Shown: positions 25,912-59,395, counted from the first letter of the stretch. The stretch is DNA of 64,000 bases from Anaerolineaceae bacterium (GCA_034428895.1 DAOUGM010000015.1:743-64742), one strand, 5' to 3'. Notes: generated by a model not told the origin, from the letters alone. Numbers and translations are program-made.

Positions 25912-26769
25912 TTATAAAATAATTTTTTTGCCGGTCAATGCCGGCTGCAGTTCGATGCTGCTGTGGTTCTGCTGGAAAGTACGAGAAACCAGGGCGTAAT
26001 GGTGCAAATCCCAGAAGTCTTCCTTCTCCCGTCCAATTTCCTGCAAATGAGCGATCACCAACCTTGCCGGCTGCAGGTGAGAGAAGAAAGCATAAAAATC
26101 TTCCAAATAAGGAAGAGTTTCCTGAAGCGCGCAGCCTTTGCCCAGCCAGAGATGAGCAAAGACTCCGTCCAGTCTGCCAAAATCGGGAAGTCCTGTACAG
26201 TCATACTGGCGGGTATCGCCAGGGAAAAGCCAGCGTCTGCCTTTGAACTCCGCCAGGTACCCCATTTCCGGAATTCCATGATCTCCGTTGTAATGGAGGG
26301 CGTTGAACGGGGTGAGTCTCAATCCATCGATGTGAAACTGTTTGCCGGGACTGGGGATAATGATGCTGTCGCTGCGCAAGCCGGCACGCTCGACGGCCAG
26401 GTCGAGCATGAACTCGGGGATGACCCAGCGGATGGGAAGATCGCGCAGCGCATGGATCAACTGCACATCGAAGTGATCGTTATGCGCGTGAGATAGCACG
26501 ACCAGTTCCAATTTGGCGAGGTCTTCAGACAGGTCGCACGAATGCGAGAGATGGATACGATGAAGAAGAAAGTACGGATCCAGTGCCCAACGGACATTGC
26601 AGGTGTGGAAAAGGTAATTGGCTGAATAGGTCAACCAGGCGGCATCTTCAGTGCTGTTTGTCTGCCATTCATCGATGATCTTTTGCCAGAGGGATGGATA
26701 TTCCCCGGCGATTGTTTTGCTCGGATCGTGGGTGGATGCTGCTTGAACACCGTTGGCATCATTCCGCAT
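25912..26769 (-). CDS. MBL-fold metallo-hydrolase (UlaG / COG2220-like)
   Basis: 285 aa with the HxHxDH motif in VLSHAHNDHFD. It overlaps the upstream PfkB gene by 11 nt (ATGCGGAATGA). Confidence 0.75.
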   Translation of the reverse strand: MRNDANGVQAASTHDPSKTIAGEYPSLWQKIIDEWQTNSTEDAAWLTYSANYLFHTCNVRWALDPYFLLHRIHLSHSCDLSEDLAKLELVVLSHAHNDHFDVQLIHALRDLPIRWVIPEFMLDLAVERAGLRSDSIIIPSPGKQFHIDGLRLTPFNALHYNGDHGIPEMGYLAEFKGRRWLFPGDTRQYDCTGLPDFGRLDGVFAHLWLGKGCALQETLPYLEDFYAFFSHLQPARLVIAHLQEIGREKEDFWDLHHYALVSRTFQQNHSSIELQPALTGKKIIL

Positions 26770-27655
26770 AGTATTGGTCTATGAAGGCTTCCACTTCGCT
26801 GATGGGGCGGTCGAACGGACCCTTGCGTTCCATCTTCAGGCTGGTTACCGCAGCCGCCCATTTTCCGGCTTCGCGCGGAGGCAGGGTGAGGCGTTTGGAG
26901 ACATAAGATCCCACGCAGGTATCTCCGCGGCCGCTGCGGCCTTCCATGGAATTGGAGTGGAAGCGATAATGGTAACATTTCCCTTCCGCGTGGATCATCA
27001 CGCCCTCACTGTGCGTGAGGACGATCTCTTTCGGTCCAAGGGCGGCGAAGATCCTGGCGGCTTTTTCGATGTCCGTCTCACCGGTCAGGTATTCAGCCTC
27101 CACCGCGTCTGATTTCAGAATGTCGAGGTTTTTCAATACCTCGGCCATTTCTTCCCAAGGTTCATATACGAGCGCTTCTCCGCGCACCACGCGCACGAAT
27201 CCCTGAACATCGGCGGAAAGGAGCACATTGTTTTTCTTACGCAAGGTTGTAAAGAACTCAGGCTCCACTTCGCCGCGCAAACTGGGGCTCACCACCACGG
27301 CGCGGGCTTCCAGACCTTCCAGGTGTTCGGGCTGAATGGTTCCGGCGATCCCTTTCACGTACAAATTCCTTTTATCCACATCGTGGGTCTTGTATTCCAA
27401 CGTCATCAAGGTGGAAGAGGGAGAATACACCGGGAAGCAATCGATGCCGTCCTTTTGAATATTCTTTACCACATGTTCGTCTTCTTTTGCCAGGCGGGTG
27501 ACAACGGCGGCTTTGATTCCCAGGGATTTGCCGGCATGGGCGGCATAGTTCATTCCTCCGCCGTCAAGGTAGTGGGTGCCGTCCGGGGTGATGATGGTAT
27601 CTTTTGTGTAATTTCCGGCAAATATTACGTCATAGAGCTTCAATGTATTCGTCAT
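26759..27655 (-). CDS. PfkB-family carbohydrate / phosphosugar kinase
   Basis: 298 aa with the ribokinase-like N-terminal GG dipeptide region (YLDGGGMNYA) and a C-terminal anion-hole-like motif (GRGDTCVGSY). Confidence 0.8.
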   Translation of the reverse strand: MTNTLKLYDVIFAGNYTKDTIITPDGTHYLDGGGMNYAAHAGKSLGIKAAVVTRLAKEDEHVVKNIQKDGIDCFPVYSPSSTLMTLEYKTHDVDKRNLYVKGIAGTIQPEHLEGLEARAVVVSPSLRGEVEPEFFTTLRKKNNVLLSADVQGFVRVVRGEALVYEPWEEMAEVLKNLDILKSDAVEAEYLTGETDIEKAARIFAALGPKEIVLTHSEGVMIHAEGKCYHYRFHSNSMEGRSGRGDTCVGSYVSKRLTLPPREAGKWAAAVTSLKMERKGPFDRPISEVEAFIDQYYAE

Positions 27656-27668
27656 GGATCACCTTAGG

Positions 27669-28682
27669 TCAGAAAATATTAATCAGAGCAGGAACACCCT
27701 TTGTTAATACCCAATAAATTCCGGCGGCTAAAAGACCCGTTGCAGGGATGGTGAAAAGCCAGGCGGAAGCGATTTCTCCTGCAACATGCCAGCGCACTTT
27801 ACTGAAGCGCTCGGCTGCGCCCACCCCCATGATGGCGGAACTAACCACTTGGGTGGTGCTGACAGGTCCCCCCAGGAGGGAGGAAAATAAAACAACGACG
27901 GCTGCAGATGCCTGGGCTGAAAAACCATGAATGGGTCGAATTTTATAAAATTTGGAGCCAAGAGTCTTGATCAAGCTCCATCCGCCAATGGCTGTGCCGA
28001 TTGAAATTGCCAGGGCGCTGACCAAAATTACCCAAGGGAAAACAGTAAATTGCGTGGTGATTCCGCTGATCATCAACCCAAGAGCGATGATCCCCATCGA
28101 CTTTGGAGCATCATTGCTCCCCATGCCCAATGCCGGTCCGAGGGCGGTGAATATTTGCATTTTTTTAAATAACTCATTGGCCCGCGGAGTGGCTTTCCAA
28201 CACAAGAGCCTGACAATGTTGGCAAATAACCAACCCGCGAAAAATCCAAAAAATGGGGAGATAAAAAGGAAGATCAGGATTTTACCCAATCCTGCGATAT
28301 TGAGCACAGCAAATCCAGCCTTCATTGCAACTGCACCCAAAATTCCACCGATCAAGGCGTGAGAGGAACTGCTTGGTATACCAAGAATCCAGGTAACCAC
28401 GTTCCAAGCGATGGCACTCACAAGAGCAGCGATCAAGACCATCATGTTGATATGCTCGGAGGTCACAATTTCATTACCGATCGTGTCTGCGACCTTGACA
28501 CCGAAAACATACGGTCCGCAGAAGACTGCCACGGCGGTAAGCAGAAGCGCAAGCTGCGGCCGTATGGCGCGCGAGGATATCATGGTCGCCACGATATTAC
28601 TGGAATCATGAATACCGTTCAAAAAACTATATAGAAGCGCCAGGACGATTAAAATGATCAACAGCATGGGCATGTAGTACAT
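27669..28682 (-). CDS. pit: Inorganic phosphate transporter, PiT family
   Basis: 337 aa with the PHO4 signature FLNGIHDSSNIVATMISSRAI and a second repeat MGSNDAPKSMGII. Confidence 0.9.
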   Translation of the reverse strand: MYYMPMLLIILIVLALLYSFLNGIHDSSNIVATMISSRAIRPQLALLLTAVAVFCGPYVFGVKVADTIGNEIVTSEHINMMVLIAALVSAIAWNVVTWILGIPSSSSHALIGGILGAVAMKAGFAVLNIAGLGKILIFLFISPFFGFFAGWLFANIVRLLCWKATPRANELFKKMQIFTALGPALGMGSNDAPKSMGIIALGLMISGITTQFTVFPWVILVSALAISIGTAIGGWSLIKTLGSKFYKIRPIHGFSAQASAAVVVLFSSLLGGPVSTTQVVSSAIMGVGAAERFSKVRWHVAGEIASAWLFTIPATGLLAAGIYWVLTKGVPALINIF

Positions 28683-28686
28683 CCCT

Positions 28687-29307
28687 CTAGGTGGTCTTCA
28701 CAATGATATCTGCGATCACGTTCGCGGCCTCGTCACCGCGGTCAGCCGCGTTGCTCAGGTGCCGGTAGACCTCGCGTAATTTCATGATCTTCACGATGGT
28801 TGGAACATCATTTACATCGGTGAACAGGTCAGCCAGGGCCTCACGATAGACTGCCTCCACCTGATTTTCAAGTGCTTTCGCACGGCGCGCATGTTCCTGC
28901 GCTACACCCGGATGATCGGTCAAGCGGTCGATCGCGCTCAGCAATTCAAAGGTGGCGTCCCGCAAAAGGGTGCAGATCTGCACCATGTACTTGGTGGTAT
29001 CCACCTTCAGGATCACGATCTCAGTCATGGTACTGTAGGCATAATCCAAAATGTCATCGATGGCACGCGAAAGGGCGAAGATATCTTCACGGTCGAAAGG
29101 CGTGATAAACGTACGGTTCAACTCATCGATCAAGATGCGGCGCGATTCGTCGGCTTCTTTTTCCTTGGCGGTCAATTCATCCGCCAGCGATTTGGCAGGA
29201 AACAATATATAAGATTTCAACAGTTCTATCCCTTCAAGGGTGAGGGATGCCTGCTCGTGGATGAGGTGAATAAAGATATTGCGGCGTTTCTTGAAGATCT
29301 TAAACAT
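28687..29307 (-). CDS. DUF47 / PhoU-like phosphate transport regulator (PiT-associated)
   Basis: 206 aa, helical, with the typical partner position immediately upstream of pit (4-nt gap). Confidence 0.8.
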   Translation of the reverse strand: MFKIFKKRRNIFIHLIHEQASLTLEGIELLKSYILFPAKSLADELTAKEKEADESRRILIDELNRTFITPFDREDIFALSRAIDDILDYAYSTMTEIVILKVDTTKYMVQICTLLRDATFELLSAIDRLTDHPGVAQEHARRAKALENQVEAVYREALADLFTDVNDVPTIVKIMKLREVYRHLSNAADRGDEAANVIADIIVKTT

Positions 29308-29328
29308 TTTCCTTCCTCCTACTCTTTC

Positions 29329-31038
29329 CTAGATTCTTTCAACGCAGCCGGCGCTCACGAGGAATTCCATTCCCTGACGCAGTTGCTCAATGGATAGACC
29401 CGGTTCAACTTCCAGTGTACGGCATGCCGTGACCGGCAGGTAACGGGCAACCATGCGGAAATCCACGTCGCCGGTCCCCGGCTGCTGGTGGTCGGTGATC
29501 CCTTTTACATCATGCAAATGTGTACCGACGATGCGATGCCCAAACCACCTGAGCCAATCTTCATGATCGCACAATCCCAGGGCGCTCAAGGTCTGCGCAT
29601 GCCCCGTGTCGTACTGAAACCCGAACCAGCTTTCCTCGCAGAGGTTCAACAGCTTTTCCATCTCACCCGGGATGGGAATATCATAATATCGATAACGATT
29701 TTCCAACCCGATTTTCAACCCGCAGGAACGGGAAAAATCGATCACTTCCTGGATGCTTTTCAGCACCTGATCCAAATGCGGACCAGCCACTTGGGCACGG
29801 TGGGTTATCAACTCATTTTTCAGTTGTTCATATTCTCGCGTGTTTTTCAGTCCTTGTTTATACAACTCTCTCAGCCGCCGGTCGCGCGAGCGGTCTCCCA
29901 TGATCATACCCGGATGAATGACGACACTTTTCGAACCCAGATGGTATGCCAGGTCGATCGATCTCTTGATGATGTCGACACCTTTAATGCGCCGGTCTTC
30001 CTCCAGTGAGGATACCTGGTAGTCATTCACCTTGATGTCGTCTACAGTATAAACTGCCGGGCAGGGATCGTGAACGGTTGAAATATAAAAGCGGTCCTTG
30101 TCCCATTGCTCGAATAATGCGGGAACGACCTTGTGGTTGAGTTCAAAGCGGCCAAAACCAGCCAAACGGGCTTGATAAAATGTATCGTTGAAAGGAATAG
30201 ATTGATCGATACCCCACATGGTGGAAAGAGCGGCGTCGAACAGGGAAACCGGTTCGATAGGAGTAGAACTAGCAGAAGTGGTTTTTACTCCTGGATAGAT
30301 ATCCAGCAATTCACTTAAACGCCGAATCGAATGATCGGGTTTCGGCAGCAGATGTCCGTCTTTTTCCGGTTCAAAATCATCCAAATCGGTTTCATCAGAG
30401 TCATACCCTTCGGCATTGATCAGCACTGCCTGACCGTAATTCGATTGGCGCGCGCCCAGCAAGTCCCTCGAAGGGCGGTCGCCAACATAAACGCACTCTT
30501 GCGGGTGAACCCCGGTTAATCGGGCGGCTTCCAGGAATAGGGAAGGATGAGGTTTTCGGCGACCGAAAACGCAGGACAGGATGACGCAGGAAAAGAGATC
30601 GGCAAGCCCTGTTTCGGCCAGGATCTGGTATGCCTCCACGGAAGAGGTTGTGTTGCTGATCAACCCCAGTTTATAACCGCGCTTCGACAGGGCGCGCATC
30701 GTTTCCGCCATATCAGGCAGAAGACGCTTTTCATTCGATTCGCGCCACATCTGGTTGATCTTGACTGCATTTTCTCGAATAAAATCGACTGGATGGTCGG
30801 GCAGTAAAAACCGTGACCAAAGGTCAGCCTCGGCAAGCTCAAGGTAGGCAGGTTTGCTCCAACGGCGGTAGGCTTTTTCTCCCTTATGGATGCGTGAGAT
30901 GAATTCCTCGGGGGAGGTTTTTTCTCCCAGGAAGACGATCAGTTCTTTGGTTTTTTCGAGGTTGCGGCCTTGCTGGGAATTCGAAACGCGCAGCGTGCCG
31001 CCGATATCAAAAAAGAGGGCTTTAATGGTTGATTGCAT
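29329..31038 (-). CDS. Fusion protein: HAD-like hydrolase domain (motif I DIGGT) plus xylose-isomerase-like TIM barrel (AP_endonuc_2 family)
   Basis: N-terminal part: FFDIGGTL, LGLISNT, RRKPHP, YVGDRPSRD. C-terminal part: IHPG, GLENRY, YDTGH, HLHD...DH..PGTGDVDF, as in sugar-phosphate isomerases/epimerases of this fold. Confidence 0.8.
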   Translation of the reverse strand: MQSTIKALFFDIGGTLRVSNSQQGRNLEKTKELIVFLGEKTSPEEFISRIHKGEKAYRRWSKPAYLELAEADLWSRFLLPDHPVDFIRENAVKINQMWRESNEKRLLPDMAETMRALSKRGYKLGLISNTTSSVEAYQILAETGLADLFSCVILSCVFGRRKPHPSLFLEAARLTGVHPQECVYVGDRPSRDLLGARQSNYGQAVLINAEGYDSDETDLDDFEPEKDGHLLPKPDHSIRRLSELLDIYPGVKTTSASSTPIEPVSLFDAALSTMWGIDQSIPFNDTFYQARLAGFGRFELNHKVVPALFEQWDKDRFYISTVHDPCPAVYTVDDIKVNDYQVSSLEEDRRIKGVDIIKRSIDLAYHLGSKSVVIHPGMIMGDRSRDRRLRELYKQGLKNTREYEQLKNELITHRAQVAGPHLDQVLKSIQEVIDFSRSCGLKIGLENRYRYYDIPIPGEMEKLLNLCEESWFGFQYDTGHAQTLSALGLCDHEDWLRWFGHRIVGTHLHDVKGITDHQQPGTGDVDFRMVARYLPVTACRTLEVEPGLSIEQLRQGMEFLVSAGCVERI

Positions 31039-31065
31039 GAGGACTCGTTTCTAAAAGTGATTGGT

Positions 31066-32496
31066 TCAATTTTTAAGGATTGATACTTCAAGAAGCTCGT
31101 TAAACGTATCTATATACACGTCTGCCACGGCATTCTGTTCATAATTGAAGGCGATGGTTTTCATGCCCACGGCCCTGGCACCCTCAAGTTCGTATGCCTT
31201 GTGCCCCACGAAGACGGCTTCTTCAGGGGGAATGCCTGTCTGCCGTATGGCTTCTTCATACATGATCGGATGCGGCTTTCGCATGCCCATTTCCTTTGAG
31301 CTGATGACTACGTCCCACACGCAGCCAAATCCGTGCTGGTCGAACCAGGCTAATTTCCTGGAGAAATGCATGGCTGTATCGGTGATGATGCCGAGGATGA
31401 AACCTTTTTCCTTCAAGCAGTTGATCGTTTCAGGCACCCCTTCGACGATGGCAACCGTGTCATCATCCTGCCGGATGGCTTTCATCCCTTCCTGGATTTC
31501 GTCGAGGTCAATAATTCCGTATAACCGGATCAATTTTTCGTAATACTCCCGGCGTTCGATCTTCCCGGAAAACGCCAGGTCTCTCAAGCGCATTCTTTCC
31601 GTTTCAAAATCGGGAACTGGTTGCAATATTTTACCTGAAAGATATGCTTTCAGGTGTTTTTCCTTTTCAGGCCGGTAATACAGGATATCACCGGCATCAA
31701 AGAATATGGCTTTGATCTTTCGTTCTGCGGCAGTGTGTGTTCCTCTCCGTTCCTTGTGGATTTCATTTTTCAGGATCGGCAGCAGCTCATTCATGTTATC
31801 GATCACGACATCAGGCACGGCGCCTTCATCTTTTTCTCCATCATCATACTGATGGCGAATTTGAATGGCCAGTTGAAACCCCGCCTTTTTTGCCCCCAAT
31901 ATGTCGCGGCTGATCTTGTCTCCGATATAGGCACACGCACCGGTGGGGAAATTTGCCAGCCTTGCCGCGTGATAGAAAATGGACGGATCGGGTTTCCGCC
32001 GTCCGTATTGCGAGGATAGTATGATCGGGTCAAAGTATTGCTTGACCCCGTAATTTTCCAAAGTTATGGGAACCTGTGTGAGACTTTGCGTGTTGCTGAT
32101 GCATCCAATGTGCAAACCAAATTTCTGAATTGCTGCCAGTACTTGCGGCAACTCCGGCCGCATCTCACGAATATAAAATTTCGCTTCATATAAGTAGGAT
32201 AGATCTTCGGATATTTTTTTTAGCGCGTGAAGATCGATCGGCAGGTCGTTGAAAACATACTTCGACCAAATTACAAAGGTCGGCAGCTCGATCCTGGAGG
32301 TGAAATTCCATTTCCGGTAGGCGCCGATGCCGTGAGAGATCAGATCAGTCAATTGCTGATCGTCCAATGGCAAAGAAATGCCGGTAGTTTCGAGGCATTC
32401 GCGAAAGAGGTGAACTCGACTCAAGCGAAATTCTTTGGTAAATCGGAAGCTCTCGATGGTTCCGCCCACATCAAAGAAAATCGCTTTTAGGTCCAT
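31066..32496 (-). CDS. Double HAD-domain protein (two tandem HAD-like domains)
   Basis: Domain 1: FFDVGGTI, IGCISNT, RRKPDP, YIGDKISRD. Domain 2: FFDAGDIL, LGIITDT, MRKPHP, FVGHKAYELEG (motif IV Asp replaced by His). Confidence 0.8.
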   Translation of the reverse strand: MDLKAIFFDVGGTIESFRFTKEFRLSRVHLFRECLETTGISLPLDDQQLTDLISHGIGAYRKWNFTSRIELPTFVIWSKYVFNDLPIDLHALKKISEDLSYLYEAKFYIREMRPELPQVLAAIQKFGLHIGCISNTQSLTQVPITLENYGVKQYFDPIILSSQYGRRKPDPSIFYHAARLANFPTGACAYIGDKISRDILGAKKAGFQLAIQIRHQYDDGEKDEGAVPDVVIDNMNELLPILKNEIHKERRGTHTAAERKIKAIFFDAGDILYYRPEKEKHLKAYLSGKILQPVPDFETERMRLRDLAFSGKIERREYYEKLIRLYGIIDLDEIQEGMKAIRQDDDTVAIVEGVPETINCLKEKGFILGIITDTAMHFSRKLAWFDQHGFGCVWDVVISSKEMGMRKPHPIMYEEAIRQTGIPPEEAVFVGHKAYELEGARAVGMKTIAFNYEQNAVADVYIDTFNELLEVSILKN

Positions 32497-32562
32497 TTGG
32501 TTTCTCCCAATAATCTGTTGTCAAAAAATCCAAAATTTTTCGAGTATCTATAATTCTGGTCG

Positions 32563-32594
32563 TCAGGCACGGACCTGATCAGATCCGTGCCTGA
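32563..32594 (-). other. Stem-loop between the SBP gene and the downstream HAD gene (mRNA stabiliser or partial terminator candidate)
   Basis: 11-bp stem: TCAGGCACGGA (32563-32573) pairs with TCCGTGCCTGA (32584-32594). There is no clear U-tract on the minus strand. Confidence 0.4.
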
Positions 32595-32623
32595 TATTTC
32601 GACCGATCGGTTGAATGGTGTGT

Positions 32624-33853: not shown

Positions 33854-33967
33854 TTACCTTCCTCCTTGAATGAATAGGAACAGGACTAACTTTTATTGAC
33901 CGATTGGACGAATCTTGTTTCCCTGAGTACCTCCTTTTTACCTGATGCAGGGACAATCTACTTTTAA

Positions 33968-35050: not shown

Positions 35051-35062
35051 GATCCATTCTCC

Positions 35063-36898: not shown

Positions 36899-36988
36899 CT
36901 GATTTCACCTCTCTTGCGTTGATACAAAGTGGAAAAGGAGCCACTAATCTTCGAATACAGGGGCGGTCAATCAGTCGTGCAAATCAGG

Positions 36989-37873: not shown

Positions 37874-37941
37874 GTACCACCTGGATATTTGATTAATGAA
37901 AAAAGGGAAAAACGACAATATCGCAAATGGTGTATGACCAC

Positions 37942-37983
37942 TTGCATTTGCAACAGTATACAGCAAATTAAAAATATATGCAA
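37942..37983 (-). promoter_or_regulatory. Candidate sigma-70 promoter with an adjacent TTGCA-AA-TGCAA palindrome (candidate RpiR operator)
   Basis: Minus strand: TTGCAT (37978-37983), 17-nt spacer, TATACT (37955-37960), then TTGCAAATGCAA (37942-37953) at about +1. More TTGCA half-sites lie upstream (TTTGCAATTTTACTTGCAT). Confidence 0.45.
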
Positions 37984-38014
37984 GTAAAATTGCAAAGAAG
38001 GTTGTTCTCCCTGG

Positions 38015-39220
38015 TTAATGATTGGATAAGCCATCACCCAAAACCTTTTGGAGATCTGTCGTAAGCCAGATCTCGGCATTCGTGGTATCGACCAGCATGT
38101 CGCATGTCTTCATTTGCGGTCGGTAGACCTCTTCCGCCATGATGTATTGCTCCCGGAAATAGCGGTTCAGGAAATACATCAACTCATACTTCTTGCGGTA
38201 CTCCATGTCGCGCTTCCATTTTCTCTTCAACCGGATTTCATCATCGGTCAGATAAACCACTTTGAGGCTGATCATGCTGGCGATCTCAGGCAGGAGGAAC
38301 GGGAAATTCCCTTCCATGAATATTACATCGGCAGCGGGTACATAAATGGGCGTGCATCCAGGTCTCAGGTTTCCCTGCATGTCGTGGCTGGATGTGGCAC
38401 GCACGAAATCATACCGGGGAATGCTGATCGCTTTTCCATGATAGATATCCATTAGCGATTGCTTGAACAGTTCATAATGCAGGGCTTCCTTCCCGCGCGA
38501 GTCGATGCCGTGTTCCTCCCTGAAATCGCGGTCGGTCAGGAAATTGTCCATCTCGATGCCGATCACTTTTCTTCCGGTGCGCTCGAATGCTTCCCGCAGC
38601 CGCTCGACGATCTCTGTTTTCCCGGCCGCGGTTTGCCCAGCGATGGCAATAATTACGGGTAACCCTTTCAACGCAGCCAGCTTTTGGATCGTACTGAGAA
38701 AACACTCGTCCACCTCGGCATTTGCCTGTTGGAATAATTTGTATCCAACCGATTGCACGTGATCAAAAAGATCACGGCGGCTCTCGAATTTCCGCCAGGG
38801 TTTGTACGCCAGGTGAGCCTCGATCTCGGGTGTGAAATATGCCGTACGGTGGAGGAAATAAAATCCGCGGATGTCGAAATAGAAATGCTTCTTGATCCAA
38901 TCCGGCGGGTAGGCTTCCGTTACCAATCCCACACACAGCATGCGCGTCAGGTTAAGGATGTTTTCATCCATCACAATTCGACCCCCGATGCGGGGTTTGA
39001 GCTGGACGGCTTCGTAAAAATTGATGTTGTTGACCTTTCTCTCGATCTCCAACATGGAATCCGGTTTTACTGCCTCCCACCCATCCGCCAGATGCACGCC
39101 TTCGCAAGCGTAGTGAAATTCATCCAATTCCAGGTCAGCCATGCCAGGGCAAACGGACTTCATTTTTTCATACAATGCCGGCAGGCAATCCTGCAGGGAA
39201 GATCGGGATGACACGCTCAT
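38015..39220 (-). CDS. Two-domain protein: unrecognised N-terminal domain (~190 aa) plus uridine kinase / phosphoribulokinase-family P-loop kinase domain (paralog A)
   Basis: 401 aa with P-loop IAIAGQTAAGKTE. The rest follows the Udk/PRK pattern: MDNF...(H)YELF...G..ISIPRYDF...DVIFMEGNFPF...LKVVYLTDDEIRLKRKWKRD. It is a paralog of 40453..41655. Confidence 0.75.
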   Translation of the reverse strand: MSVSSRSSLQDCLPALYEKMKSVCPGMADLELDEFHYACEGVHLADGWEAVKPDSMLEIERKVNNINFYEAVQLKPRIGGRIVMDENILNLTRMLCVGLVTEAYPPDWIKKHFYFDIRGFYFLHRTAYFTPEIEAHLAYKPWRKFESRRDLFDHVQSVGYKLFQQANAEVDECFLSTIQKLAALKGLPVIIAIAGQTAAGKTEIVERLREAFERTGRKVIGIEMDNFLTDRDFREEHGIDSRGKEALHYELFKQSLMDIYHGKAISIPRYDFVRATSSHDMQGNLRPGCTPIYVPAADVIFMEGNFPFLLPEIASMISLKVVYLTDDEIRLKRKWKRDMEYRKKYELMYFLNRYFREQYIMAEEVYRPQMKTCDMLVDTTNAEIWLTTDLQKVLGDGLSNH

Positions 39221-39226
39221 AAAAAG

Positions 39227-40432
39227 TTATGCTCCGTATTTCGCAAGACGTCCAGCATGCCCAAGGGCGAGGGGCATGATGCTTGTAGCCGGGATGCACC
39301 CCAGGCTGCCATGCGCACAGGCGCGTTCGCCGAATTGGGAGATCCCTTCGGGCCGGCACGTGCTGGAGTACAGCAGCAGGGGGACGGGATGCCAGCTGTG
39401 GGATTGCAGCACTGCCGGGGAGGAATGATCCCCTCCGATGATGAGTACATCCGGCTGCAGCTCTGTGACATGCGGCAGCAGTGCGTCGAACTCTTCAATG
39501 GCCTTGACCTTGCCGTCGAAATCGCCCATCTCGCCGCAGGTATCGGTCTTTTTAAAATGAAGATAAAAGAAATCGTAGTTCTGCCAGTGTTTCTCCATTG
39601 CCGCGAACTCATCCGCCAGGATTGTTCCACCAACGGGCAATACCTCCATCCCCACCAGCCTGGCGACCCCGCGGTACATTCCGTTGACCGCCACGGCTGC
39701 GGAGGTTATCTTATAGAGGTCAGTAAAGCTGGCCAGTGTGGGAAATTTTGAAAAACCGCGCAGCATGATCATATTGGCGGGTGAATGTCCTTTTAACACC
39801 ATCCTGGCTTTGGCGATGAATTCATTCACGATCTCAGCGGTTTTCGCAGAACCGGGTGTGCGTGGGTTGGCGGGATACGGCGGCACCCCGTTGATCAACG
39901 GATCCGAATCCGTCAGGTCGGCTTCGAGACCCCTGGCGCGCAGGATAAATGCAAAGCGGTGTTCTTTTACCGGTTCGACAAACAGCTCCACCCCATCGAT
40001 CTGGATTGCACGCAAAAGTTCCACCAGTTGTGCGCTCTCTGCCGATGGGATCCGTCCGGCACGCCTGTCGATGACCCGCCCATGCTCATCGACCGTACAG
40101 AAATTTCCCCGCGCCGCGATGTCATCGGGGCCAACCTCGAAATCCACCCCCAGCGCTTCCAGAACGCCTCGGCCAATCTCGTTTTTGATGGGATCGTAAC
40201 CAAAGAGCGCCAGGTGCCCCGGACCGCTGCCGACGGTGATGCCAGGTCCGGCAGGCTGGCTCAAACCCAGGAGAGAACGATTGGCGAGGGCATCCAGGTT
40301 GGGAGTGAAAGCAGTTTCCAGCTCGGTCTTTCCTCCCACCTCGCGTGGTAAACCGCCCAGGCCGTCCAGAATGAGCATGACAATTTTGCTGGTCGCCGGA
40401 ACGGTTTGTTTTTGAAAAAAGGATGTAAACAT
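39227..40432 (-). CDS. apgM: ApgM-type (archaeal-type, cofactor-independent) phosphoglycerate mutase family protein
   Basis: 401 aa with IVMLILDGLGG, the catalytic-Ser context VGSGPGHLALFGYDP, and the C-terminal GGDHSSP and H..PVP metal-ligand motifs of the alkaline-phosphatase superfamily. Confidence 0.8.
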   Translation of the reverse strand: MFTSFFQKQTVPATSKIVMLILDGLGGLPREVGGKTELETAFTPNLDALANRSLLGLSQPAGPGITVGSGPGHLALFGYDPIKNEIGRGVLEALGVDFEVGPDDIAARGNFCTVDEHGRVIDRRAGRIPSAESAQLVELLRAIQIDGVELFVEPVKEHRFAFILRARGLEADLTDSDPLINGVPPYPANPRTPGSAKTAEIVNEFIAKARMVLKGHSPANMIMLRGFSKFPTLASFTDLYKITSAAVAVNGMYRGVARLVGMEVLPVGGTILADEFAAMEKHWQNYDFFYLHFKKTDTCGEMGDFDGKVKAIEEFDALLPHVTELQPDVLIIGGDHSSPAVLQSHSWHPVPLLLYSSTCRPEGISQFGERACAHGSLGCIPATSIMPLALGHAGRLAKYGA

Positions 40433-40452
40433 GGCAATCCTCGATCAATCAT

Positions 40453-41655
40453 TCATGGTTGTGGGAACGATGAGAGATCTAATCCTTGAGCAAGTTTTGA
40501 TGTGACCCAGAGCGCTGCTCCGGTGGTATCCACGACCATATCACATAAAGACATCAAAGGGCGATACACTTCCTCCGCCCGCAGGAACTGGGTCCTGAAA
40601 TAACGGTTGCAGAAATAAACCTGGTCGTATTTCTTGCGGTAATCGATATCCCGCCGCCACTTGCGTTTGAGCCGCACCGGATCGTCAGTCAAATAGACGA
40701 TTTTCAACCCCACCCACTGGGCGATTTCGGGCAAATGGAAGGGGAAATTGCCTTCCAGGAAGATGATATCCGCCGGGTCAATTTGAATGGGTGTCTGCCC
40801 GGGTCGAAGATTTCCGTCGAGGTCGTGGCTCGAAGTGGTGGTGATGAAGTTGTAGCGCGGGATATTGACCGTTCGCCCCTGCATGAGATTTTGCAGGCTG
40901 TTGCGGAAAATCTCAAAGTGGATCACGTTCTGATCCAGTACCTTGCCGTCGCGAAAGCTGCCGTCCTTATAAAAGTTGTCCATTTCAATGGAAACGATGC
41001 TCTTGCCGCGTTGTTGAAACATCTCTTTCAGCCTTTGGGCAATTTCCGTTTTCCCTGAACCGGAAGGGCCTGCGAGGGTCATAAGAAAGGGAAGCGGAGC
41101 AGTCTCAACCAGTTTATGAACGATGTGCATGAACGCCTGGTCGATTTCCTCGTTTGCCGCAATGAACTCCCGCAGGCCGATGTCCTGGCGGCTTTCGAAG
41201 GTTCTTTGTTTTTTCTCGAAAAGTAAGCGCGGTTTTTCATTCAAATGCCCGCGGACCTCCGGAGGAAAATACTCTGTCCGAACGAAGAATAAAAAACCGC
41301 GAATATCAAAGTAAAACAGGTTGCCGATCCAGTCCACCGGGTAAGTACCGGTTACCAATCCTTTGAACAAAGTCTGCGCGAGTTGAACGATGGTTCGATC
41401 AAGTACGATATGATCTTCTCTCAGCGGTTTGAGTTGTATGCCGCTGAAGAATTTGTGCTGGCGAACGCGTGTTTCGATTTCCTCCACGCCCGGGAGAGGA
41501 ACGCTTAACCAGCCGGATTCGGGAATAAGGTTGCCGAGTGCATAATCGAACTCATACCATTCAAGATCGTTGATCCCCGGACAGACCTTTTTCATTGCAT
41601 CGAAAAGGATGCGGGAGAAAAGCCCGCGATCATTCAGGATCGAGGCATCGATCAT
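40453..41655 (-). CDS. Two-domain protein: unrecognised N-terminal domain plus uridine kinase / PRK-family P-loop kinase domain (paralog B)
   Basis: 400 aa with P-loop TLAGPSGSGKTE. It is collinear with paralog A over its full length, for example CPGINDLEWYEFDYA, YPVDWIGNLFYFDIRGFLFF, NIPRYNF and IVYLTDDPVRLKRKWRRD. Confidence 0.75.
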   Translation of the reverse strand: MIDASILNDRGLFSRILFDAMKKVCPGINDLEWYEFDYALGNLIPESGWLSVPLPGVEEIETRVRQHKFFSGIQLKPLREDHIVLDRTIVQLAQTLFKGLVTGTYPVDWIGNLFYFDIRGFLFFVRTEYFPPEVRGHLNEKPRLLFEKKQRTFESRQDIGLREFIAANEEIDQAFMHIVHKLVETAPLPFLMTLAGPSGSGKTEIAQRLKEMFQQRGKSIVSIEMDNFYKDGSFRDGKVLDQNVIHFEIFRNSLQNLMQGRTVNIPRYNFITTTSSHDLDGNLRPGQTPIQIDPADIIFLEGNFPFHLPEIAQWVGLKIVYLTDDPVRLKRKWRRDIDYRKKYDQVYFCNRYFRTQFLRAEEVYRPLMSLCDMVVDTTGAALWVTSKLAQGLDLSSFPQP

Positions 41656-41658
41656 CGT

Positions 41659-43266
41659 TTATCCTCCATAATAATGCTGACCCATGCCTAACACCAATGC
41701 ATCGTATGCTTTTTTGATCCTGGTATAGTTGCCGTCGCGATCGAGGGCGATCCCGCGGCCGACGGCTGTGACAATTTGTCCAACTCCGATCGCGGCGATC
41801 TTGTGTTCGAGTTTTTCAAGCAGGGCGGGCGCACTGCCGGGTTCGGTGCTCCTGCCGTCGAAAATTAAATGAAGATAGACTTCCTGTAAACCCTTTTCAC
41901 TCGCCATCTGAAGTAAAGCGAGAGGGTAGTCAATACAGCCGTGGGAGCTCTTTTCGGTGAGCAGTCCGATCAAATGCAAACTGGTCTTGCGCTGCAATAC
42001 GCCGTCGATCGCATGAAGAAAGACCTCGTTTTTTGAAAAGGTGCCATCACCCAATGAATTATCGAGGCGCACATCGTCCTGCTCGATGATCCGCCCGGCG
42101 CCGATATTCAAATGTCCGGCCTCGGAGTTGCCGTTCTTTCCGGCTCGAAGCCCGACGTCTTCCCCTGCGGCTTGCAGTTGTGCAAGACCATACCGCTGCA
42201 GCAAACCATCCCAGATCGGGGTGCGCGCGAGAAATATGGGGTTGGTATCGTCGTCTTTGCCAATGCCCCAGCCGTCCAGGATGATCAGAAGTACCTTTCT
42301 TCTTTCTCCATATTCGTGATTTGCGATAAGGTTGTTTCCGGTCATGGAGTCCGGAACGTTCAAGCCCATGGCCGACAGTATTGTCGGAGCAAGGTCGGCA
42401 AGCTTACCGTTGGAAACACGTAAGGGTTTACTGCTTTTAGGGTCGATCAGGACCAGGGGCACCGGGTTCGCGGTATGAGAGACGTGCGGTTTTCCTTCCT
42501 CGGTGAAGAGCTGTTCAAGGTTGCCGTGGTCGGCGGTGACCGCGATCACGTAACCGGCGGTTGTGGCTGTTTTAACGACTTCACCCAGGTGACAATCAAG
42601 TGCTTCGGCGCATTGGATCTTGGCTTCACGATTCGATGTATGCCCGATCACATCCCCGTTGGCAAAATTGGTCACGATCAGGTCATAACCTGCCTGGATG
42701 GCCCGGGTGACTTCCCGGGTGACCTCGGGCAGGTTGAGCTGCGGCACCTGGTCGAATGGGATGCCTTTAGGCGAGGGGATGCGTTCATCTGTTTCACCAT
42801 GAAAAGGCTGATTATTTCCACCGTTAAGGAAGAAGGTCACATGGGCGAATTTCTCGGATTCCGCGCAATGGAACTGGCTCAAGCCGGCGCGGCTGACCGC
42901 TTCTGCAAGCGTGCCCTTGATCTGCGAGGGCAGGAAAGCCACCGGCAGGTCCTTGAATTTTTCGTGGTACAGCGTAAGGATGACAAATTCGAGGGGAGCC
43001 AGGTTCAGGCGTTGAAAATGCGGAAAATTAATATCAGTGAAAGCCTCGGTCAGTTCGATCTCGCGCTCGCCGCGCCGGCAGCAAAAAATGACGCCATCCC
43101 CCGGGCTGATCACTCCGACGGGAGTGCCGGATTCATCGACGCGCACCAACGGCTCCATCGAGTAATCTGTTTGCCCGGCTGCATATGCCTGTTCGACAGC
43201 CCTGGCCAGTTGAATTCCTCCATGCGAGAGATCGTTTTTCATCTTCATCCCTTTCGCCTCACTCAC
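41659..43266 (-). CDS. GpmI-type cofactor-independent phosphoglycerate mutase homolog with circularly permuted domain order
   Basis: 535 aa. Residues ~1-315 match the C-terminal part of canonical iPGM (AESEKFAHVTFFLNGG, NFANGDVIGH, VTADHGN, SHTANPVP, LADLAPTILSAMGL, MTGNNLI). Residues ~323-535 match the canonical N-terminal part (KVLLIILDGWG, GNSEAGHLNIGAGR, SLHLIGLL, IFDGRS, GRGIALDRD). Confidence 0.8.
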   Translation of the reverse strand: MSEAKGMKMKNDLSHGGIQLARAVEQAYAAGQTDYSMEPLVRVDESGTPVGVISPGDGVIFCCRRGEREIELTEAFTDINFPHFQRLNLAPLEFVILTLYHEKFKDLPVAFLPSQIKGTLAEAVSRAGLSQFHCAESEKFAHVTFFLNGGNNQPFHGETDERIPSPKGIPFDQVPQLNLPEVTREVTRAIQAGYDLIVTNFANGDVIGHTSNREAKIQCAEALDCHLGEVVKTATTAGYVIAVTADHGNLEQLFTEEGKPHVSHTANPVPLVLIDPKSSKPLRVSNGKLADLAPTILSAMGLNVPDSMTGNNLIANHEYGERRKVLLIILDGWGIGKDDDTNPIFLARTPIWDGLLQRYGLAQLQAAGEDVGLRAGKNGNSEAGHLNIGAGRIIEQDDVRLDNSLGDGTFSKNEVFLHAIDGVLQRKTSLHLIGLLTEKSSHGCIDYPLALLQMASEKGLQEVYLHLIFDGRSTEPGSAPALLEKLEHKIAAIGVGQIVTAVGRGIALDRDGNYTRIKKAYDALVLGMGQHYYGG

Positions 43267-43284
43267 CTTGAGCTGGCAAATGGT

Positions 43285-44073
43285 CTATTCCAACCCGCTC
43301 GATGTGGATAATTCGACTGTGCGAATCTTCTCCATGCACACCTGCGGGACCTTGGGGAAGAGCTGTAATAGCTCACTAAACTCGTAGATAACGGCATCCG
43401 GTTTGTTTTCTTCTGTGACTGATTCCTGCGCCAAATCCTCCGGACTGATCATGATGACGACCATGCCGAAGCCGGCGTTGCGCGTACCGGTCACATCACG
43501 CTGCAGGTTGTCGCCGACATAGACGCATTTGGCGGGTTCCGTTTCAGCGCGGCGTGCAGCTTCATAATAGATCTCCGGATCCGGTTTGCGTACGCCCATC
43601 ACCGAGGAGAGCACCACGGATTTGAAATATCCGGCCAGGTTGTCGGCTTCCAGCCAATCCGGTATTTCCCTGGAGGTGATCACGTTGCTGATCAAGCCCA
43701 GGGTGTATCCACGGCGGTGAAGCTCGGCAACCACTTCACTGCCGTTTTCCACCATCACCCTGAGTCCCATGGACTGGCGATACTGGTAGGTCAATTCAAG
43801 TCCCAATGGGGCAACTTTTTCCGCCGGAAACTCCGGTGCCAACCAGCGCGTCCATAACTCCGACTCGGGAGCCTCTTTGAGGTTGGCAAAAGCCCACTTT
43901 CGGTATACCTTATATCGTTCGTCCACTTTTTGAATAAATGAATCCGGATCCTCATGCGTGCCCAACAGTTCAACGATCCTGCGCCTGGCTCGGGCTTGAT
44001 GGTCTTCATTGGGCGTCAGGATGCGCAGGGTATTGCCGACGTCCAGGAAAATTGCTTCGATCTCAGGGTTCAT
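43285..44073 (-). CDS. HAD-like hydrolase, DVGNT subfamily (paralog 2)
   Basis: Motifs IFLDVGNTL, LGLISNV, VRKPDP, YVGDNLQRD. Start revised to ATG at 44073 (MNPEIEAIF..., RBS AAGGGAAG), which removes the overlap with the upstream paralog. Confidence 0.8.
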   Translation of the reverse strand: MNPEIEAIFLDVGNTLRILTPNEDHQARARRRIVELLGTHEDPDSFIQKVDERYKVYRKWAFANLKEAPESELWTRWLAPEFPAEKVAPLGLELTYQYRQSMGLRVMVENGSEVVAELHRRGYTLGLISNVITSREIPDWLEADNLAGYFKSVVLSSVMGVRKPDPEIYYEAARRAETEPAKCVYVGDNLQRDVTGTRNAGFGMVVIMISPEDLAQESVTEENKPDAVIYEFSELLQLFPKVPQVCMEKIRTVELSTSSGLE

Positions 44074-44101
44074 TTTTCGGTCTTCCCTTATGAAGAATGG
44101 G

Positions 44102-44833
44102 TTATTTGCGGGGTGGAAAAATATCCAGCAGTTGGCGGGTTTCCTTGATGGCGTAATCCGGTTGATGTTCCCCACTCGGAGGTTCTTTTGCCAGGGTGGC
44201 AGGCTCTTCAAAGAGGATCATCATCCCAAATCCGGCTGCGCGCGTCCCATCCACATCGCGCACCGGGTTATCACCCACGTAAGCGCATTTGGCGGGTTCC
44301 ACGCCGATATCGCGAGCAGCCATCCAATAAATTTCAGGGTCGGGTTTTCGATACCTTACTTTGGATGAGAGGATTACGGTTTTTAAGTATTTACCCAGAC
44401 CCTCGCTTTCCATCCAATCCGGGATCTCGGTCTCGGTGATGGTGTTGGCAATGATGCCCAGTTTATAACCGCGGCGGTCGAGCTCAATGATGGTCGATTT
44501 GGCGTCATCACGCGGAACCCGTCGTCCGTCATGATCGCGCCACAAACGGGTCAGTTTGCCAGCCATGGGAGCGATCTTCTCATAGGGGTAATCGGGGAGG
44601 AGGTGGATGGTCCATAATTCCTTCTCTGAGGCTTCGACCAGCGTTTCCTTGGATGTTTTGCGGTGTTTTTTCCATCGGGTTTCGAGCTTTTCGAAGAATT
44701 CCTCTTCGGTTTCCGTGGTGCCAACCAGCGCCATTAAGTCCTTGCGGGCCTGGGCTTGAAACTCAGGCTCTTCCAACAGAATTCGCAACGTGTTGCCGAC
44801 ATCCAGAAAAATGGCTTCAATTTCGGAATTCAT
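44102..44833 (-). CDS. HAD-like hydrolase, DVGNT subfamily (paralog 1)
   Basis: 243 aa with motifs IFLDVGNTL, LGIIANT, YRKPDP, YVGDNPVRD. RBS is CAGGAG. It is the first gene of the co-directional array. Confidence 0.8.
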   Translation of the reverse strand: MNSEIEAIFLDVGNTLRILLEEPEFQAQARKDLMALVGTTETEEEFFEKLETRWKKHRKTSKETLVEASEKELWTIHLLPDYPYEKIAPMAGKLTRLWRDHDGRRVPRDDAKSTIIELDRRGYKLGIIANTITETEIPDWMESEGLGKYLKTVILSSKVRYRKPDPEIYWMAARDIGVEPAKCAYVGDNPVRDVDGTRAAGFGMMILFEEPATLAKEPPSGEHQPDYAIKETRQLLDIFPPRK

Positions 44834-44903
44834 GTTTGCTCCTGAATGAAAGTATGGATATCTTGCAAAATAAGGAAAAATGAAATAAAACTTACATTTG
44901 TAT

Positions 44904-44932
44904 ATATTACGACATTACAAATTAAAATGCAA
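44904..44932 (-). promoter_or_regulatory. Candidate sigma-70 promoter for the HAD/mutase/kinase array
   Basis: Minus strand: TTGCAT (44927-44932), 17-nt spacer, TAATAT (44904-44909), about 70 nt upstream of the ATG at 44833. Confidence 0.35.
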
Positions 44933-45104
44933 GAGATCGTTCAGGAGATACTATTTAGTCGAGAAATCCTCACGGCCTTGAGAATCTTCGATCAGTGTCC
45001 ATATTCAATTCTTAAAATTTTCAACAATATCTAAAAAAGAGTCAATTTCCTGAGATAATAAACAAGGGGGGCAAAAATATTTATTTGTTGGAAGGTTGAA
45101 TAAT

Positions 45105-48904: not shown

Positions 48905-49011
48905 GGAAAATCCTATGTGTCGAAAAAAGATTCAAAATGATACCAGATATAAATAATATAGACACTCAATGATTTAATTTATTGGGCGATACGGGATGAT
49001 TCGATTGAACC

Positions 49012-49043
49012 CGGTCATCGGGAGAATCCTCTCCCGATGACCG
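49012..49043 (-). other. Intra-operon stem-loop after the sugar SBP gene
   Basis: 14-bp perfect stem: CGGTCATCGGGAGA (49012-49025) pairs with TCTCCCGATGACCG (49030-49043), 4-nt loop. No U-tract follows. Confidence 0.45.
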
Positions 49044-49060
49044 TTGGATTCAAAAACTGA

Positions 49061-53912: not shown

Positions 53913-53981
53913 ACTAGGCGAAATTCGCCCGAATTTCACCGACCCATTTCAAACTTATTTTTACCGATTATTGAGGTAACC

Positions 53982-56521: not shown

Positions 56522-56578
56522 ATGAGTGGTCATCGCTACCTCACTCTGTATTATTCGTGGTGACTGGAGGTGTAGGAA

Positions 56579-59371: not shown

Positions 59372-59395
59372 CTTGATTTTAGATGAATCATGATT

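Follow-up and report, generated by a model that had tools for sequence, protein, structure and literature searches.

A conserved operon-like gene module of Anaerolineae with a possible role in organophosphate import and phosphate rearrangement

Within a 64,000-nt stretch of DNA from Anaerolineaceae bacterium (GCA_034428895.1, DAOUGM010000015.1:743-64742; hereafter the window, whose numbering is used for all positions), open reading frame (ORF) listing and translation delineate 16 consecutive co-directional genes at 25912-44833, all on the minus strand. We propose, with a probability of about one half, that these genes form an operon-like module, conserved across Anaerolineae, which imports a small anionic organophosphate and reworks its phosphates in the cytoplasm without carbon-skeleton chemistry. 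The proposal of organophosphate import and phosphate rearrangement is based on the closed gene set: an importer, a sensing regulator, a carrier of inorganic phosphate (Pi) and about ten phosphoryl-transfer domains are encoded together, and there are no carbon-skeleton enzymes among them. Indeed, every enzyme of the set is plausibly a P-O bond enzyme, which agrees with the phosphate-ester theme of an earlier note made on this DNA from the sequence alone. The domain content listed in that note was also recovered by Pfam and NCBIfam for the gene set, the PfkB call being based on a match to TM0415. No description of the cluster was found in the literature searched, and the genes carry generic names in the source annotations ('uridine kinase', 'iron(III) transport system substrate-binding protein', 'sugar/nucleoside kinase', 'hypothetical protein'). 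The features of the locus, in the direction of transcription, are as follows.

44834-45095, minus strand: upstream intergenic region, presumed operon promoter; a 262-nt gap before the first gene, common to a divergent Na+/H+ exchanger gene
44102-44833, minus strand: HAD1, a single HAD-IA protein of 243 amino acids (aa) (Pfam HAD_2/Hydrolase)
43285-44073, minus strand: HAD2, a paralogous single HAD-IA protein (Pfam; corrected start)
41659-43266, minus strand: piPGM, 535 aa, a circularly permuted protein resembling the cofactor-independent phosphoglycerate mutase iPGM (alignment to iPGM)
40453-41655, minus strand: kinase B, 400 aa, an orphan N-terminal domain joined to a Udk/PRK-like P-loop kinase (Pfam PRK)
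39227-40432, minus strand: homolog of the ApgM-type cofactor-independent phosphoglycerate mutase, 401 aa (NF003160; Pfam PhosphMutase and Metalloenzyme)
38015-39220, minus strand: kinase A, 401 aa, an orphan N-terminal domain (aa 1-185) joined to a Udk/PRK-like kinase (Pfam PRK)
36989-37873, minus strand: RpiR-family regulator, HTH_6 and SIS domains (Pfam; corrected start)
35063-36898, minus strand: fused ABC importer permease with two BPD_transp_1 domains, 611 aa (Pfam, two stretches)
33968-35050, minus strand: ABC importer ATPase with a C-terminal OB/TOBE regulatory domain, 360 aa (Pfam ABC_tran and OB_MalK/TOBE_2)
32624-33853, minus strand: substrate-binding lipoprotein (SBP) of the Fbp/Afu/P5PA branch, 409 aa (lipobox; profile matches)
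32563-32594, minus strand: 32-nt near-perfect palindrome (repeat search)
31066-32496, minus strand: double HAD protein, 476 aa (Pfam, two HAD stretches)
29329-31038, minus strand: HAD domain (aa 1-250) fused to an AP_endonuc_2 TIM barrel (aa ~256-569) (Pfam)
28687-29307, minus strand: DUF47/PhoU_div protein (Pfam PF01865 at 1e-18)
27669-28682, minus strand: PiT-family inorganic phosphate transporter, 337 aa (Pfam PHO4 at 2.6e-82)
26759-27655, minus strand: TM0415-type ribokinase-family (PfkB-like) kinase, 298 aa, predicted to depend on inorganic pyrophosphate (PPi) (PDB 1vk4/5ysp)
25912-26769, minus strand: MBL-fold metallo-hydrolase with the motif HAHNDH, 285 aa (Pfam Lactamase_B_2)

The conservation of this set was assessed by a scan with kinase A, taking one genome per species, which gave 200 loci, of which 80 were kept; the compared homologous loci carry L-numbers below. 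Nearly all of the 80 belong to metagenome-assembled genomes (MAGs) of Anaerolineae/Chloroflexota, and they also include Levilinea saccharolytica KIBI-1 and MAGs assigned to Leptolinea and Longilinea. Presence was counted by tblastn of the 16 window proteins in 49 loci from different species genomes with full 10-kb flanks. All window-protein matches (742/742) lie on the strand of the kinase, and the ATPase is found in 47 of the 49 loci, the SBP and the double HAD protein in 46 each, piPGM in 45, the permease in 43, RpiR in 42 and ApgM in 36; a second kinase copy occurs in 21. The DUF47, PiT, PfkB-like kinase and MBL genes are more than 10 kb from kinase A and thus usually fall outside these flanks. 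The loci centred on the PfkB-like kinase (L085, L086) read HAD-TIM(x2)-DUF47-PiT(x2)-PfkB-MBL, with PiT duplicated and the MBL gene directly after the PPi kinase. DUF47 adjoins PiT in these two, in L003 and in many other loci.

A second architecture, RpiR-ABC-TIM-HAD-HAD-HAD-piPGM-ApgM-TIM-kinase-PiT-DUF47-PfkB, is found in L009, L021, L033, L052 and others. Here the TIM barrel and the HAD domains each have a gene of their own, the double HAD protein is encoded by two genes, and the permease is sometimes split (two genes in L052). The HAD-TIM fusion is duplicated in many genomes, and copy-number variation was noted for L085, L086, L001, L030, L066, L068, L073 and L083. One or two single HADs precede the permuted mutase, the number varying between genomes. 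The same set stays on one strand although the gene order takes two forms and the fusions differ, so that it is one functional module; such rearrangement with retention is strong evidence for functional coupling. Chance adjacency, which had also been considered, is ruled out by the synteny statistics (49 loci, 742/742 on the same strand). The conserved synteny on which the earlier note had made its model depend is thus found, co-directionally, in approximately 80 species-level Anaerolineae/Chloroflexota genomes.

In the scheme that we infer, including its order of steps, the direction of flux and the chemistry ascribed to the individual HADs and the TIM barrel, the compound would be brought in by the membrane-anchored binding lipoprotein of the Fbp/Afu type together with the fused permease and the ATPase. 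The TIM barrel, resembling endonuclease IV (Endo IV) and CbiR, and perhaps also the MBL protein, would then cut a phosphoester or phosphodiester bond, and four or five non-canonical HAD domains would strip phosphoryl groups or hand them on. One or two Udk-like kinases using ATP and the TM0415-type kinase using PPi would re-phosphorylate hydroxyls, and the two mutases of the alkaline phosphatase superfamily would move phosphate between neighbouring hydroxyls. Since the permuted mutase keeps a phosphoglycerate-type pocket, a phosphoglycerate-like acid is the probable product, feeding into lower glycolysis. PiT with DUF47 would balance the freed Pi, and RpiR/SIS would sense a phosphorylated intermediate. 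A dedicated PiT/DUF47 pair makes sense because the PPi kinase would free Pi and the esterase steps more of it. The basic lids of the Udk-like kinases and the RpiR/SIS regulator point to phosphorylated acceptors and effectors, hence bisphosphorylated intermediates are suggested.

As the earlier note also held, no textbook pathway fits the combination, the ApgM homolog being the only protein to pass an NCBIfam equivalog cutoff. The cluster works like an RpiR-controlled operon for ABC uptake plus catabolism, but it does not belong to the Iol, Ula, Phn or Afu systems: either the enzymes that define them are absent or their family thresholds are not reached. Among the 16 genes and in the variant architectures no IolG, IolE, IolD, UlaD, UlaE, UlaF, PhnW, PhnX, C-P lyase or enolase was detected. 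The UlaG/ascorbate, Iol, Phn and glycolytic assignments were rejected on these grounds (signature enzymes missing, scores sub-threshold). In the variant architectures examined, no dehydrogenase, aldolase, glycosidase or lyase has been recruited to the set. When enzymes linking it to central metabolism were sought in rearranged clusters, only an unrelated ABC-F protein, a sigma factor, a STAND NTPase, an MFS protein and an FAD oxidase were found.

The PfkB-like kinase has no Pfam match at E<=0.01 and aligns end to end with the ribokinase-family protein TM0415 (PDB 1vk4/5ysp, E 2e-46). The family first assigned to it is upheld by this match, and PPi rather than ATP is predicted as its phosphoryl donor. 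The use of PPi is set by five residues, K171, F221, R229, R232 and M266, and by the motif RXGRGD (Nagata et al., 2018; PMC5931981). The window kinase has all five, reads RSGRGD at the motif and also carries K-S-D-A-V-E; the bulky hydrophobics of the F221 and M266 type, which occlude the ATP pocket, are thereby both kept. In the 120 closest homologs K171, R229 and R232 do not vary (120/120), 117 of them have F221, and position 266 is taken by V, I, M or L. In addition, the acceptor-site substitutions N78L/S89L/L116S are common to the window kinase and to homolog No. 49 of Levilinea saccharolytica (WP_062419767.1), for which they were reported (Nagata et al., 2018; PMC5931981). Homolog No. 49 was shown to be PPi-dependent and phosphorylates myo-inositol unspecifically at three positions, from which the authors concluded that its true acceptor is another compound (PMC5931981). 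The window kinase is an ortholog of the TM0415-type kinases, and by these residues PPi, not ATP, is predicted to be its donor.

In L054 and L056 the kinase gene comes directly after PiT, in the same architecture as the Levilinea locus L053; the stretch of L053 ends at PiT, and the place of the tested kinase gene in that copy could not be confirmed. The operon gives a putative physiological context to the Levilinea PPi kinase. In T. maritima TM0415 belongs to an inositol catabolic operon with dehydrogenases, whereas the window kinase closes an operon of phosphotransfer enzymes and transporters. In Bellilinea L084 (1-9817) the PPi kinase is detached from the module and divergent to a LacI regulator. 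Its neighbours there are a GFO_IDH_MocA gene, two zinc-dependent alcohol dehydrogenases (ADHs), a stand-alone AP_endonuc_2 barrel, FAD-linked oxidases and a creatininase-like gene, which by their families look like a cyclitol or sugar-acid catabolic set. The candidate PPi kinase table in the supplement of PMC5931981 lists two adjacent homologs, AMJ93_05390 and AMJ93_05395, from Anaerolineae bacterium SM23_84; therefore tandem duplication of the PPi kinase occurs too.

Three substrate classes come into question, cyclitol or inositol phosphates, glycerate-type acids and ribosyl phosphates, and each is backed by one or two components and contradicted by others. The first is brought up by the kinase just described. 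A cyclitol or inositol (poly)phosphate, or a phosphodiester of it, would be taken up or recycled, its phosphates being stripped by the HAD, TIM and MBL proteins, moved by the mutases and re-installed by the kinases. We consider this unlikely. In its favour, the one gene with a biochemical anchor is orthologous to PPi-dependent myo-inositol kinases (TM0415, Levilinea No. 49); in L084 this kinase adjoins LacI, GFO_IDH_MocA, ADH and AP_endonuc_2 genes of an inositol-catabolic look, the profile of the TIM domain touches IolE and TM0416, and the many phosphate-handling domains would suit a multiply phosphorylated ring. However, the unspecific action of No. 49 on myo-inositol led its authors to another acceptor, piPGM retains a phosphoglycerate-type Arg/Lys pocket, the SBP has few invariant basic residues, and the cluster contains no inositol dehydrogenase, inositol monophosphatase or myo-inositol-phosphate synthase.

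Both phosphoglycerate-mutase-type enzymes can be accommodated in the import and rearrangement reading. The circular permutation of piPGM, which had been noticed from the sequence, is exact by alignment: residues 322-532 correspond to residues 3-213 of Bacillus stearothermophilus iPGM and residues 23-315 to iPGM residues 219-510 (E 2e-108), a short linker joins the old termini, and the new termini are near iPGM residue 216. The catalytic Ser62, counted among the seven Mn ligands, and the other six, D12, D403, H407, D444, H445 and H462, are conserved in 62/62 full-length homologs. H123 and R153 are likewise invariant (62/62), and R185, R191, R261, R264 and K336 are each kept in 61 of the 62; in the B. 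stearothermophilus structures these seven residues contact phosphoglycerate. This retention fits the 'glycerate-like' ligand proposed for the locus earlier. On the other hand, all 62 homologs have Ser in place of D154 and most have Ser in place of H125, and the score of the protein is over the TIGR01307 cutoff and under that of NF003897 (402 vs 862). The pocket thus appears phosphoglycerate-like but consistently altered. What GpmI and piPGM have in common are the alkaline-phosphatase-superfamily Ser and metal sites and the Arg/Lys/His contacts; piPGM differs in being permuted and in carrying D154S throughout. The ApgM homolog scores 563.1 bits against NF003160 (equivalog cutoff 468). Unlike GpmI and ApgM in their usual context, the two different mutases of the cluster adjoin kinases and HADs, not glycolytic genes.

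These mutases argue for a glycerate-type acid as the substrate, which is essentially the model of the earlier note: a glycerate-containing or phosphoglycerate-like compound would be imported and converted to 2-phosphoglycerate or 3-phosphoglycerate via bisphosphorylated or positional-isomer intermediates. This is a possibility of low standing. Of the two phosphoglycerate-mutase homologs one is over its equivalog cutoff and the other keeps its contacts in 61-62 of 62 homologs, and with phosphoglycerate as the product, enzymes of C-C or redox chemistry could be dispensed with. Glycerate 3-kinases are among the enzymes with the PRK/Udk fold, the lid of the kinases is basic, and the HADs score best, under cutoff, against phosphoglycolate-phosphatase-like models. 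It is contradicted by the replacement of D154 with Ser in all permuted mutases, which suggests a ligand other than plain phosphoglycerate, and by the absence of ApgM from 13 of the 49 loci. Moreover, five HADs, a TIM-barrel esterase and a PPi kinase related to inositol kinases would be left unexplained.

In the proposed phosphate-rearranging module the ATP-dependent steps would fall to kinases A and B, which are 48% identical. Pfam PRK covers residues 190-379 of kinase A and 193-376 of kinase B, and the Walker A motif, the Udk-type catalytic Asp and the basic lid RLKRKWKRDxDYRKKY are conserved. The C-terminal 210 aa have the fold, the Walker A motif and the catalytic Asp in common with the uridine-cytidine kinase/phosphoribulokinase family. 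Compared to Udk, a single domain of approximately 210 aa, however, kinases A and B have an extra N-terminal domain of 185 aa, a 4-residue insertion before the conserved His and a far more basic lid. Such a very basic lid suggests an acceptor that is already anionic. The udk equivalog scores are 65-73 bits against cutoffs of 180-220 (NF004018, 73 and 70 vs 180). PDB matches of kinase A to UCK1/UCK2 span the C-terminal half alone, and when its AlphaFold2 model (mean predicted local distance difference test, pLDDT, 85.7) was compared with the PDB by Foldseek, the C-terminal Udk/PRK/PanK domain was matched and the N-terminal domain was not. The N-terminal domain also gave no match in NCBIfam; among 1.84 billion proteins it forms 64 representative clusters, all of them N-termini of same-family kinases or fragments. 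Kinase A has more than 2300 database homologs, approximately 60% identical and mostly from Anaerolineae. In L085 an extra same-family kinase, apparently split into a 147-aa ORF without a Pfam match and a 265-aa PRK-domain ORF, is found after the MBL gene (11775-13525), and a shikimate-kinase-like P-loop protein comes after it.

For the TIM barrel a profile of 28 sequences gave MJ1311 as the best match (3.8e-19), followed by UlaE, Endo IV, IolE and TM0416, and the best NCBIfam model is the CbiR phosphodiesterase (2.4e-5, 24 bits vs a cutoff of 105). The motifs HPG, Y-D-x-G-H, H-L-H-D and D-H are invariant and align with six of the nine Zn ligands of E. coli Endo IV, H109, D179, H182, H216, D229 and H231, in a motif-level alignment of low hhalign probability. 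The other three, H69, E145 and E261, have plausible invariant counterparts in a protein whose family scores are far under cutoff. CbiR itself is a small-molecule phosphodiesterase of cobamide remodelling in the AP_endonuc_2 superfamily (PMC7733943). With moderate confidence only, the TIM barrel is thus predicted to be a phosphoesterase rather than an epimerase; the epimerase or isomerase role first suggested for it is not favoured by the closeness to MJ1311, the weak CbiR match and the Endo IV-like metal-ligand motifs. It differs from Endo IV and CbiR in scoring far under the family cutoffs, its closest solved relative MJ1311 is uncharacterised, and in this genome it is fused to a HAD domain. 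The MBL protein has an HxHxDH motif and weak PDB matches only (UPF0173 at 0.004, NAPE-PLD at 0.07). Its proposed identity as a UlaG-type lactonase finds no backing, as it scores 14.9 bits against NF008688 (cutoff 306) and UlaG is not among its PDB matches.

The Udk-like kinases and the TIM barrel together lead to the third substrate class, a ribose-phosphate compound such as a nucleotide fragment or a ribosyl phosphodiester, which we regard as improbable. The kinases have uridine-cytidine kinases as their nearest relatives and retain both the catalytic Asp and the Tyr/Phe/His of P-x-Y-D-F...H, and both Endo IV and CbiR, which the TIM barrel resembles, cut beside a (deoxy)ribose phosphate. The regulator is of the RpiR family, some HAD matches, sub-threshold, are to pyrimidine nucleotidases, and the window flanks encode pyrimidine and purine catabolism. 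Yet the position aligned with UCK2 Asp84, presumably the ribose-binding residue, is not conserved, the mutases are iPGM/ApgM-like and not phosphopentomutase-like, and the set contains no nucleoside phosphorylase or hydrolase. The nucleobase-catabolism neighbourhood, moreover, is absent in L001, L003 and L084.

The HAD domains, which the proposed organophosphate module would use to strip or hand on phosphoryl groups, are five in number, all of the HAD-IA type with a C1 cap, and nearest to the uncharacterised TIGR02253/TIGR02252 groups and PH0459. HAD1 is TIGR02253/TIGR02252-like, under cutoff, with FLDVGNT as motif I, and D-x-G-N-T is kept in approximately 58 of 61 homologs. HAD2 reads MNPEIEAIFLDVGNTL and has orthologs of 249-257 aa; Asp+2 is missing from its motif I in all homolog variants listed, mostly D-x-G-N-T with a minority of D-x-G-G-T and D-x-N-G-T. 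The double HAD protein scores 183.7 bits against TIGR02253 with both domains summed; motif I is FFDVGGT in its N-domain and FFDAGDI in its C-domain, where VGH replaces the GD of motif IV. Across homologs, four of the five domain families have D-x-G-[NG]-T (in a minority D-x-N-G-T) as motif I. The remaining family, that of the double HAD C-domain, has D-A-G-D-[IV], and it is only here, in four loci, that the canonical D-x-D is found, reading DADGV. The Mg-binding motif IV, GDxxxD, is present in four of the five domains (GDRPSRD, GDKISRD, GDNLQRD, GDNPVRD), together with RKP(D/H)P for the Lys of motif III.

With motif I of these forms, the Asp+2 that serves canonical HAD phosphatases and mutases as general acid/base is missing, and the HADs are not canonical phosphatases. 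Therefore they would be better suited to good leaving groups or to phosphoryl transfer than to simple hydrolysis, which would fit phosphoanhydrides, acyl phosphates, or a long-lived aspartyl phosphate as the intermediate of phosphotransfer. To judge from its motifs, the double HAD C-domain may lack catalytic activity or have a regulatory role. The best family and structure matches are REG-2/CTE7-type HAD-IA hydrolases (TIGR02252/TIGR02253; PH0459, HDHD3), themselves uncharacterised and likewise not known to have the canonical Asp+2. Compared to these, the HADs of the cluster are four or five paralogous domains encoded together, some of them fused to each other or to the TIM barrel.

Phosphoryl transfer by such HADs raises another option, a PPi-linked network in which the phosphoryls of an imported organophosphate, or of imported PPi, would be passed between carrier metabolites and not just hydrolysed. 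The HAD phosphotransferases without Asp+2, the mutases of the alkaline phosphatase superfamily and the reversible PPi kinase would pass phosphoryls on, the energy of the ester bond would be kept as PPi (R-O-P + Pi <-> R-OH + PPi), and PiT would supply or remove Pi. The odds of this are poor.

The regulator of the proposed importing module, RpiR, matches PF01418 (1.2e-14) and PF01380 (8e-7), reaches no equivalog cutoff and has orthologs of 291-295 aa; DUF47 is the usual partner of PiT. A simpler function, phosphorus scavenging, with Pi freed from imported organophosphates and no use of the carbon, is improbable. It could be argued from the many putative phosphoesterases encoded in one operon with a Pi transporter and a PhoU-like partner, and from the importer class, which includes phosphonate and sugar-phosphate systems. 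But simple Pi release would need neither the three kinases nor the two mutases, the regulator is of the metabolite-sensing RpiR/SIS type and not of the Pho type, and PiT is a low-affinity carrier, not typical of Pi starvation.

The importer, through which the proposed organophosphate would enter, is Afu/Fbp-like as first described, in that it belongs to the Fbp/Afu/P5PA branch by its fused double permease, single ATPase and SBP profile. The best NCBIfam model of the permease is PhnU2 (167 bits, under the cutoff of 593), and the ATPase is UgpC/PhnT2/FbpC-like, all under cutoff; the two proteins are of the kind typical for Fbp/Afu/Phn/Thi importers. The SBP has the lipobox LAAC followed by a Pro/Ala/Thr linker. 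A profile of 38 SBP homologs matched Fbp-like 7f6p (2e-18), AfuA (4r72, 4e-7) and P5PA, which binds pyridoxal phosphate (PLP) (6wce, 1e-6); in NCBIfam the SBP had no match, iron-SBP models included. Its AlphaFold2 model, made with 25 homologs of 75-97% identity, had a pLDDT of 45. AfuABC, P5PA and Fbp have the same architecture as the cluster importer (SBP, a fused permease of 2 x 6 transmembrane segments, one ATPase), with an SBP of the cluster-D type. The importer differs from Afu in that the SBP similarity is remote (AfuA 4e-7) and the Afu operon is without dedicated enzymes. That it is an ordinary ferric-iron Fbp transporter with incidental phosphate-enzyme neighbours is hardly credible: although SBP homologs carry the JGI label 'iron(III) transport system substrate-binding protein' and the best solved relatives were deposited as iron-binding proteins, the transporter genes lie inside the enzyme set, in both gene orders and on the same strand, in 43-47 of 49 loci, no NCBIfam iron-SBP model was matched, and the sugar-phosphate binder AfuA and the PLP binder P5PA are in the same structural branch.

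Several points weigh against organophosphate import with phosphate rearrangement as well. Among the SBP residues that are invariant in 38 homologs, aromatic and acidic ones predominate and basic ones are few, which is not the pattern of a polyanion binder, and a neutral or zwitterionic ligand is therefore compatible too. ApgM and piPGM could be housekeeping phosphoglycerate mutases, sited here for co-regulation, and the Endo IV-like view of the TIM barrel comes from a motif-level alignment with a low hhalign probability. The conservation is very high: the ABC proteins are typically 65-88% identical across loci and the PPi kinase 71-93% among its 120 best database matches, which is more typical of housekeeping than of peripheral catabolism; the Udk-like kinase is approximately 55-68% identical across species-level genomes. 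For the genes of the cluster, the sole biochemistry comes from a homolog of the PPi kinase, and the remaining roles are predicted from sequence. As to the earlier interpretation as a whole, the cluster is real and conserved and a route for a phospho-compound is plausible, while the UlaG assignment and the count of 18 genes had to be given up and the epimerase reading is not favoured.

In plus-strand order, from MBL/PfkB to HAD2/HAD1, the junction gaps are -11, 13, 4, 21, 27, 127, 114, 12, 90, 48, 6, 20, 3, 18 and -110 nt. The overlap of 110 nt and the gap of 90 nt are artefacts, two ORFs having been called too long: the start of HAD2 is most likely Met47 of the listed ORF (44073), giving a 28-nt gap, and that of RpiR most likely Met32 (37873). 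With these two starts corrected, 11 of the 15 junctions are under 30 nt, so that the gaps are mostly as short as had been stated. The base composition of the cluster is uniform with that of its flanks. A sigma-70-like site is found at 45045-45017 on the minus strand, inside the upstream gap presumed to hold the operon promoter, but such sites are no commoner there than in shuffled sequence; promoter and terminator scans in general did no better than with shuffled sequence, and Rfam gave zero RNA element matches in 20000-52000, the upstream gap included. The palindrome at 32563-32594, immediately 3' of the SBP gene, has 16-nt arms (TCAGGCACGGACCTGA/TCAGATCCGTGCCTGA) that are 94% complementary and without a spacer, and may as a transcript form an mRNA-stabilising hairpin which raises SBP expression over that of the other genes.

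Two half-transporter (exporter) genes with ABC_membrane and ABC_tran domains follow the MBL gene on the same strand (22199-25860). The 18 genes counted in the earlier note can be reached only by adding this pair, which lies beyond the span given there for the locus. The same pair directly follows the PPi kinase in Bellilinea L084, and it may be loosely linked to the module. On the other side, the divergent Na+/H+ exchanger-TrkA gene (45096-47114) separates the cluster from a second importer just upstream, a CUT1-type sugar ABC system with two permeases and SBP_bac_8 (47199-50422, minus strand). The flanks (1-21993 and 51476-63233) contain genes of nucleobase catabolism, including a PreT/PreA-like dihydropyrimidine dehydrogenase (53982-56521) and a xanthine-dehydrogenase-like molybdoenzyme (56579-59371) with its FAD subunit at 2495-3379. 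Further genes of this group encode an amidohydrolase, M20 peptidases, AllG, a CoA-ligase-like protein, four class-III aminotransferases and an aldehyde dehydrogenase.

In anaerobic digesters, sediments and activated sludge few bacteria are as abundant and as little understood as Anaerolineae, and the module is one of their most conserved lineage-specific gene sets. It contains three testable protein novelties, namely an iPGM with a natural circular permutation, a Udk-like kinase carrying an orphan domain and a HAD family that lacks the general acid, and its cultured carrier Levilinea saccharolytica KIBI-1 makes the pathway experimentally reachable. It also provides a genomic context for a question that the study of Nagata et al. 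(2018) raised, which compound is the true acceptor of the PPi-dependent kinases of the ribokinase family. If the pathway is coupled to PPi, it would be a new element in anaerobic energy and phosphorus metabolism. A PPi-linked network, if true, would be a class-wide energy-sparing trait of the anaerobic Anaerolineae and would show a physiological role for the TM0415-type kinases.

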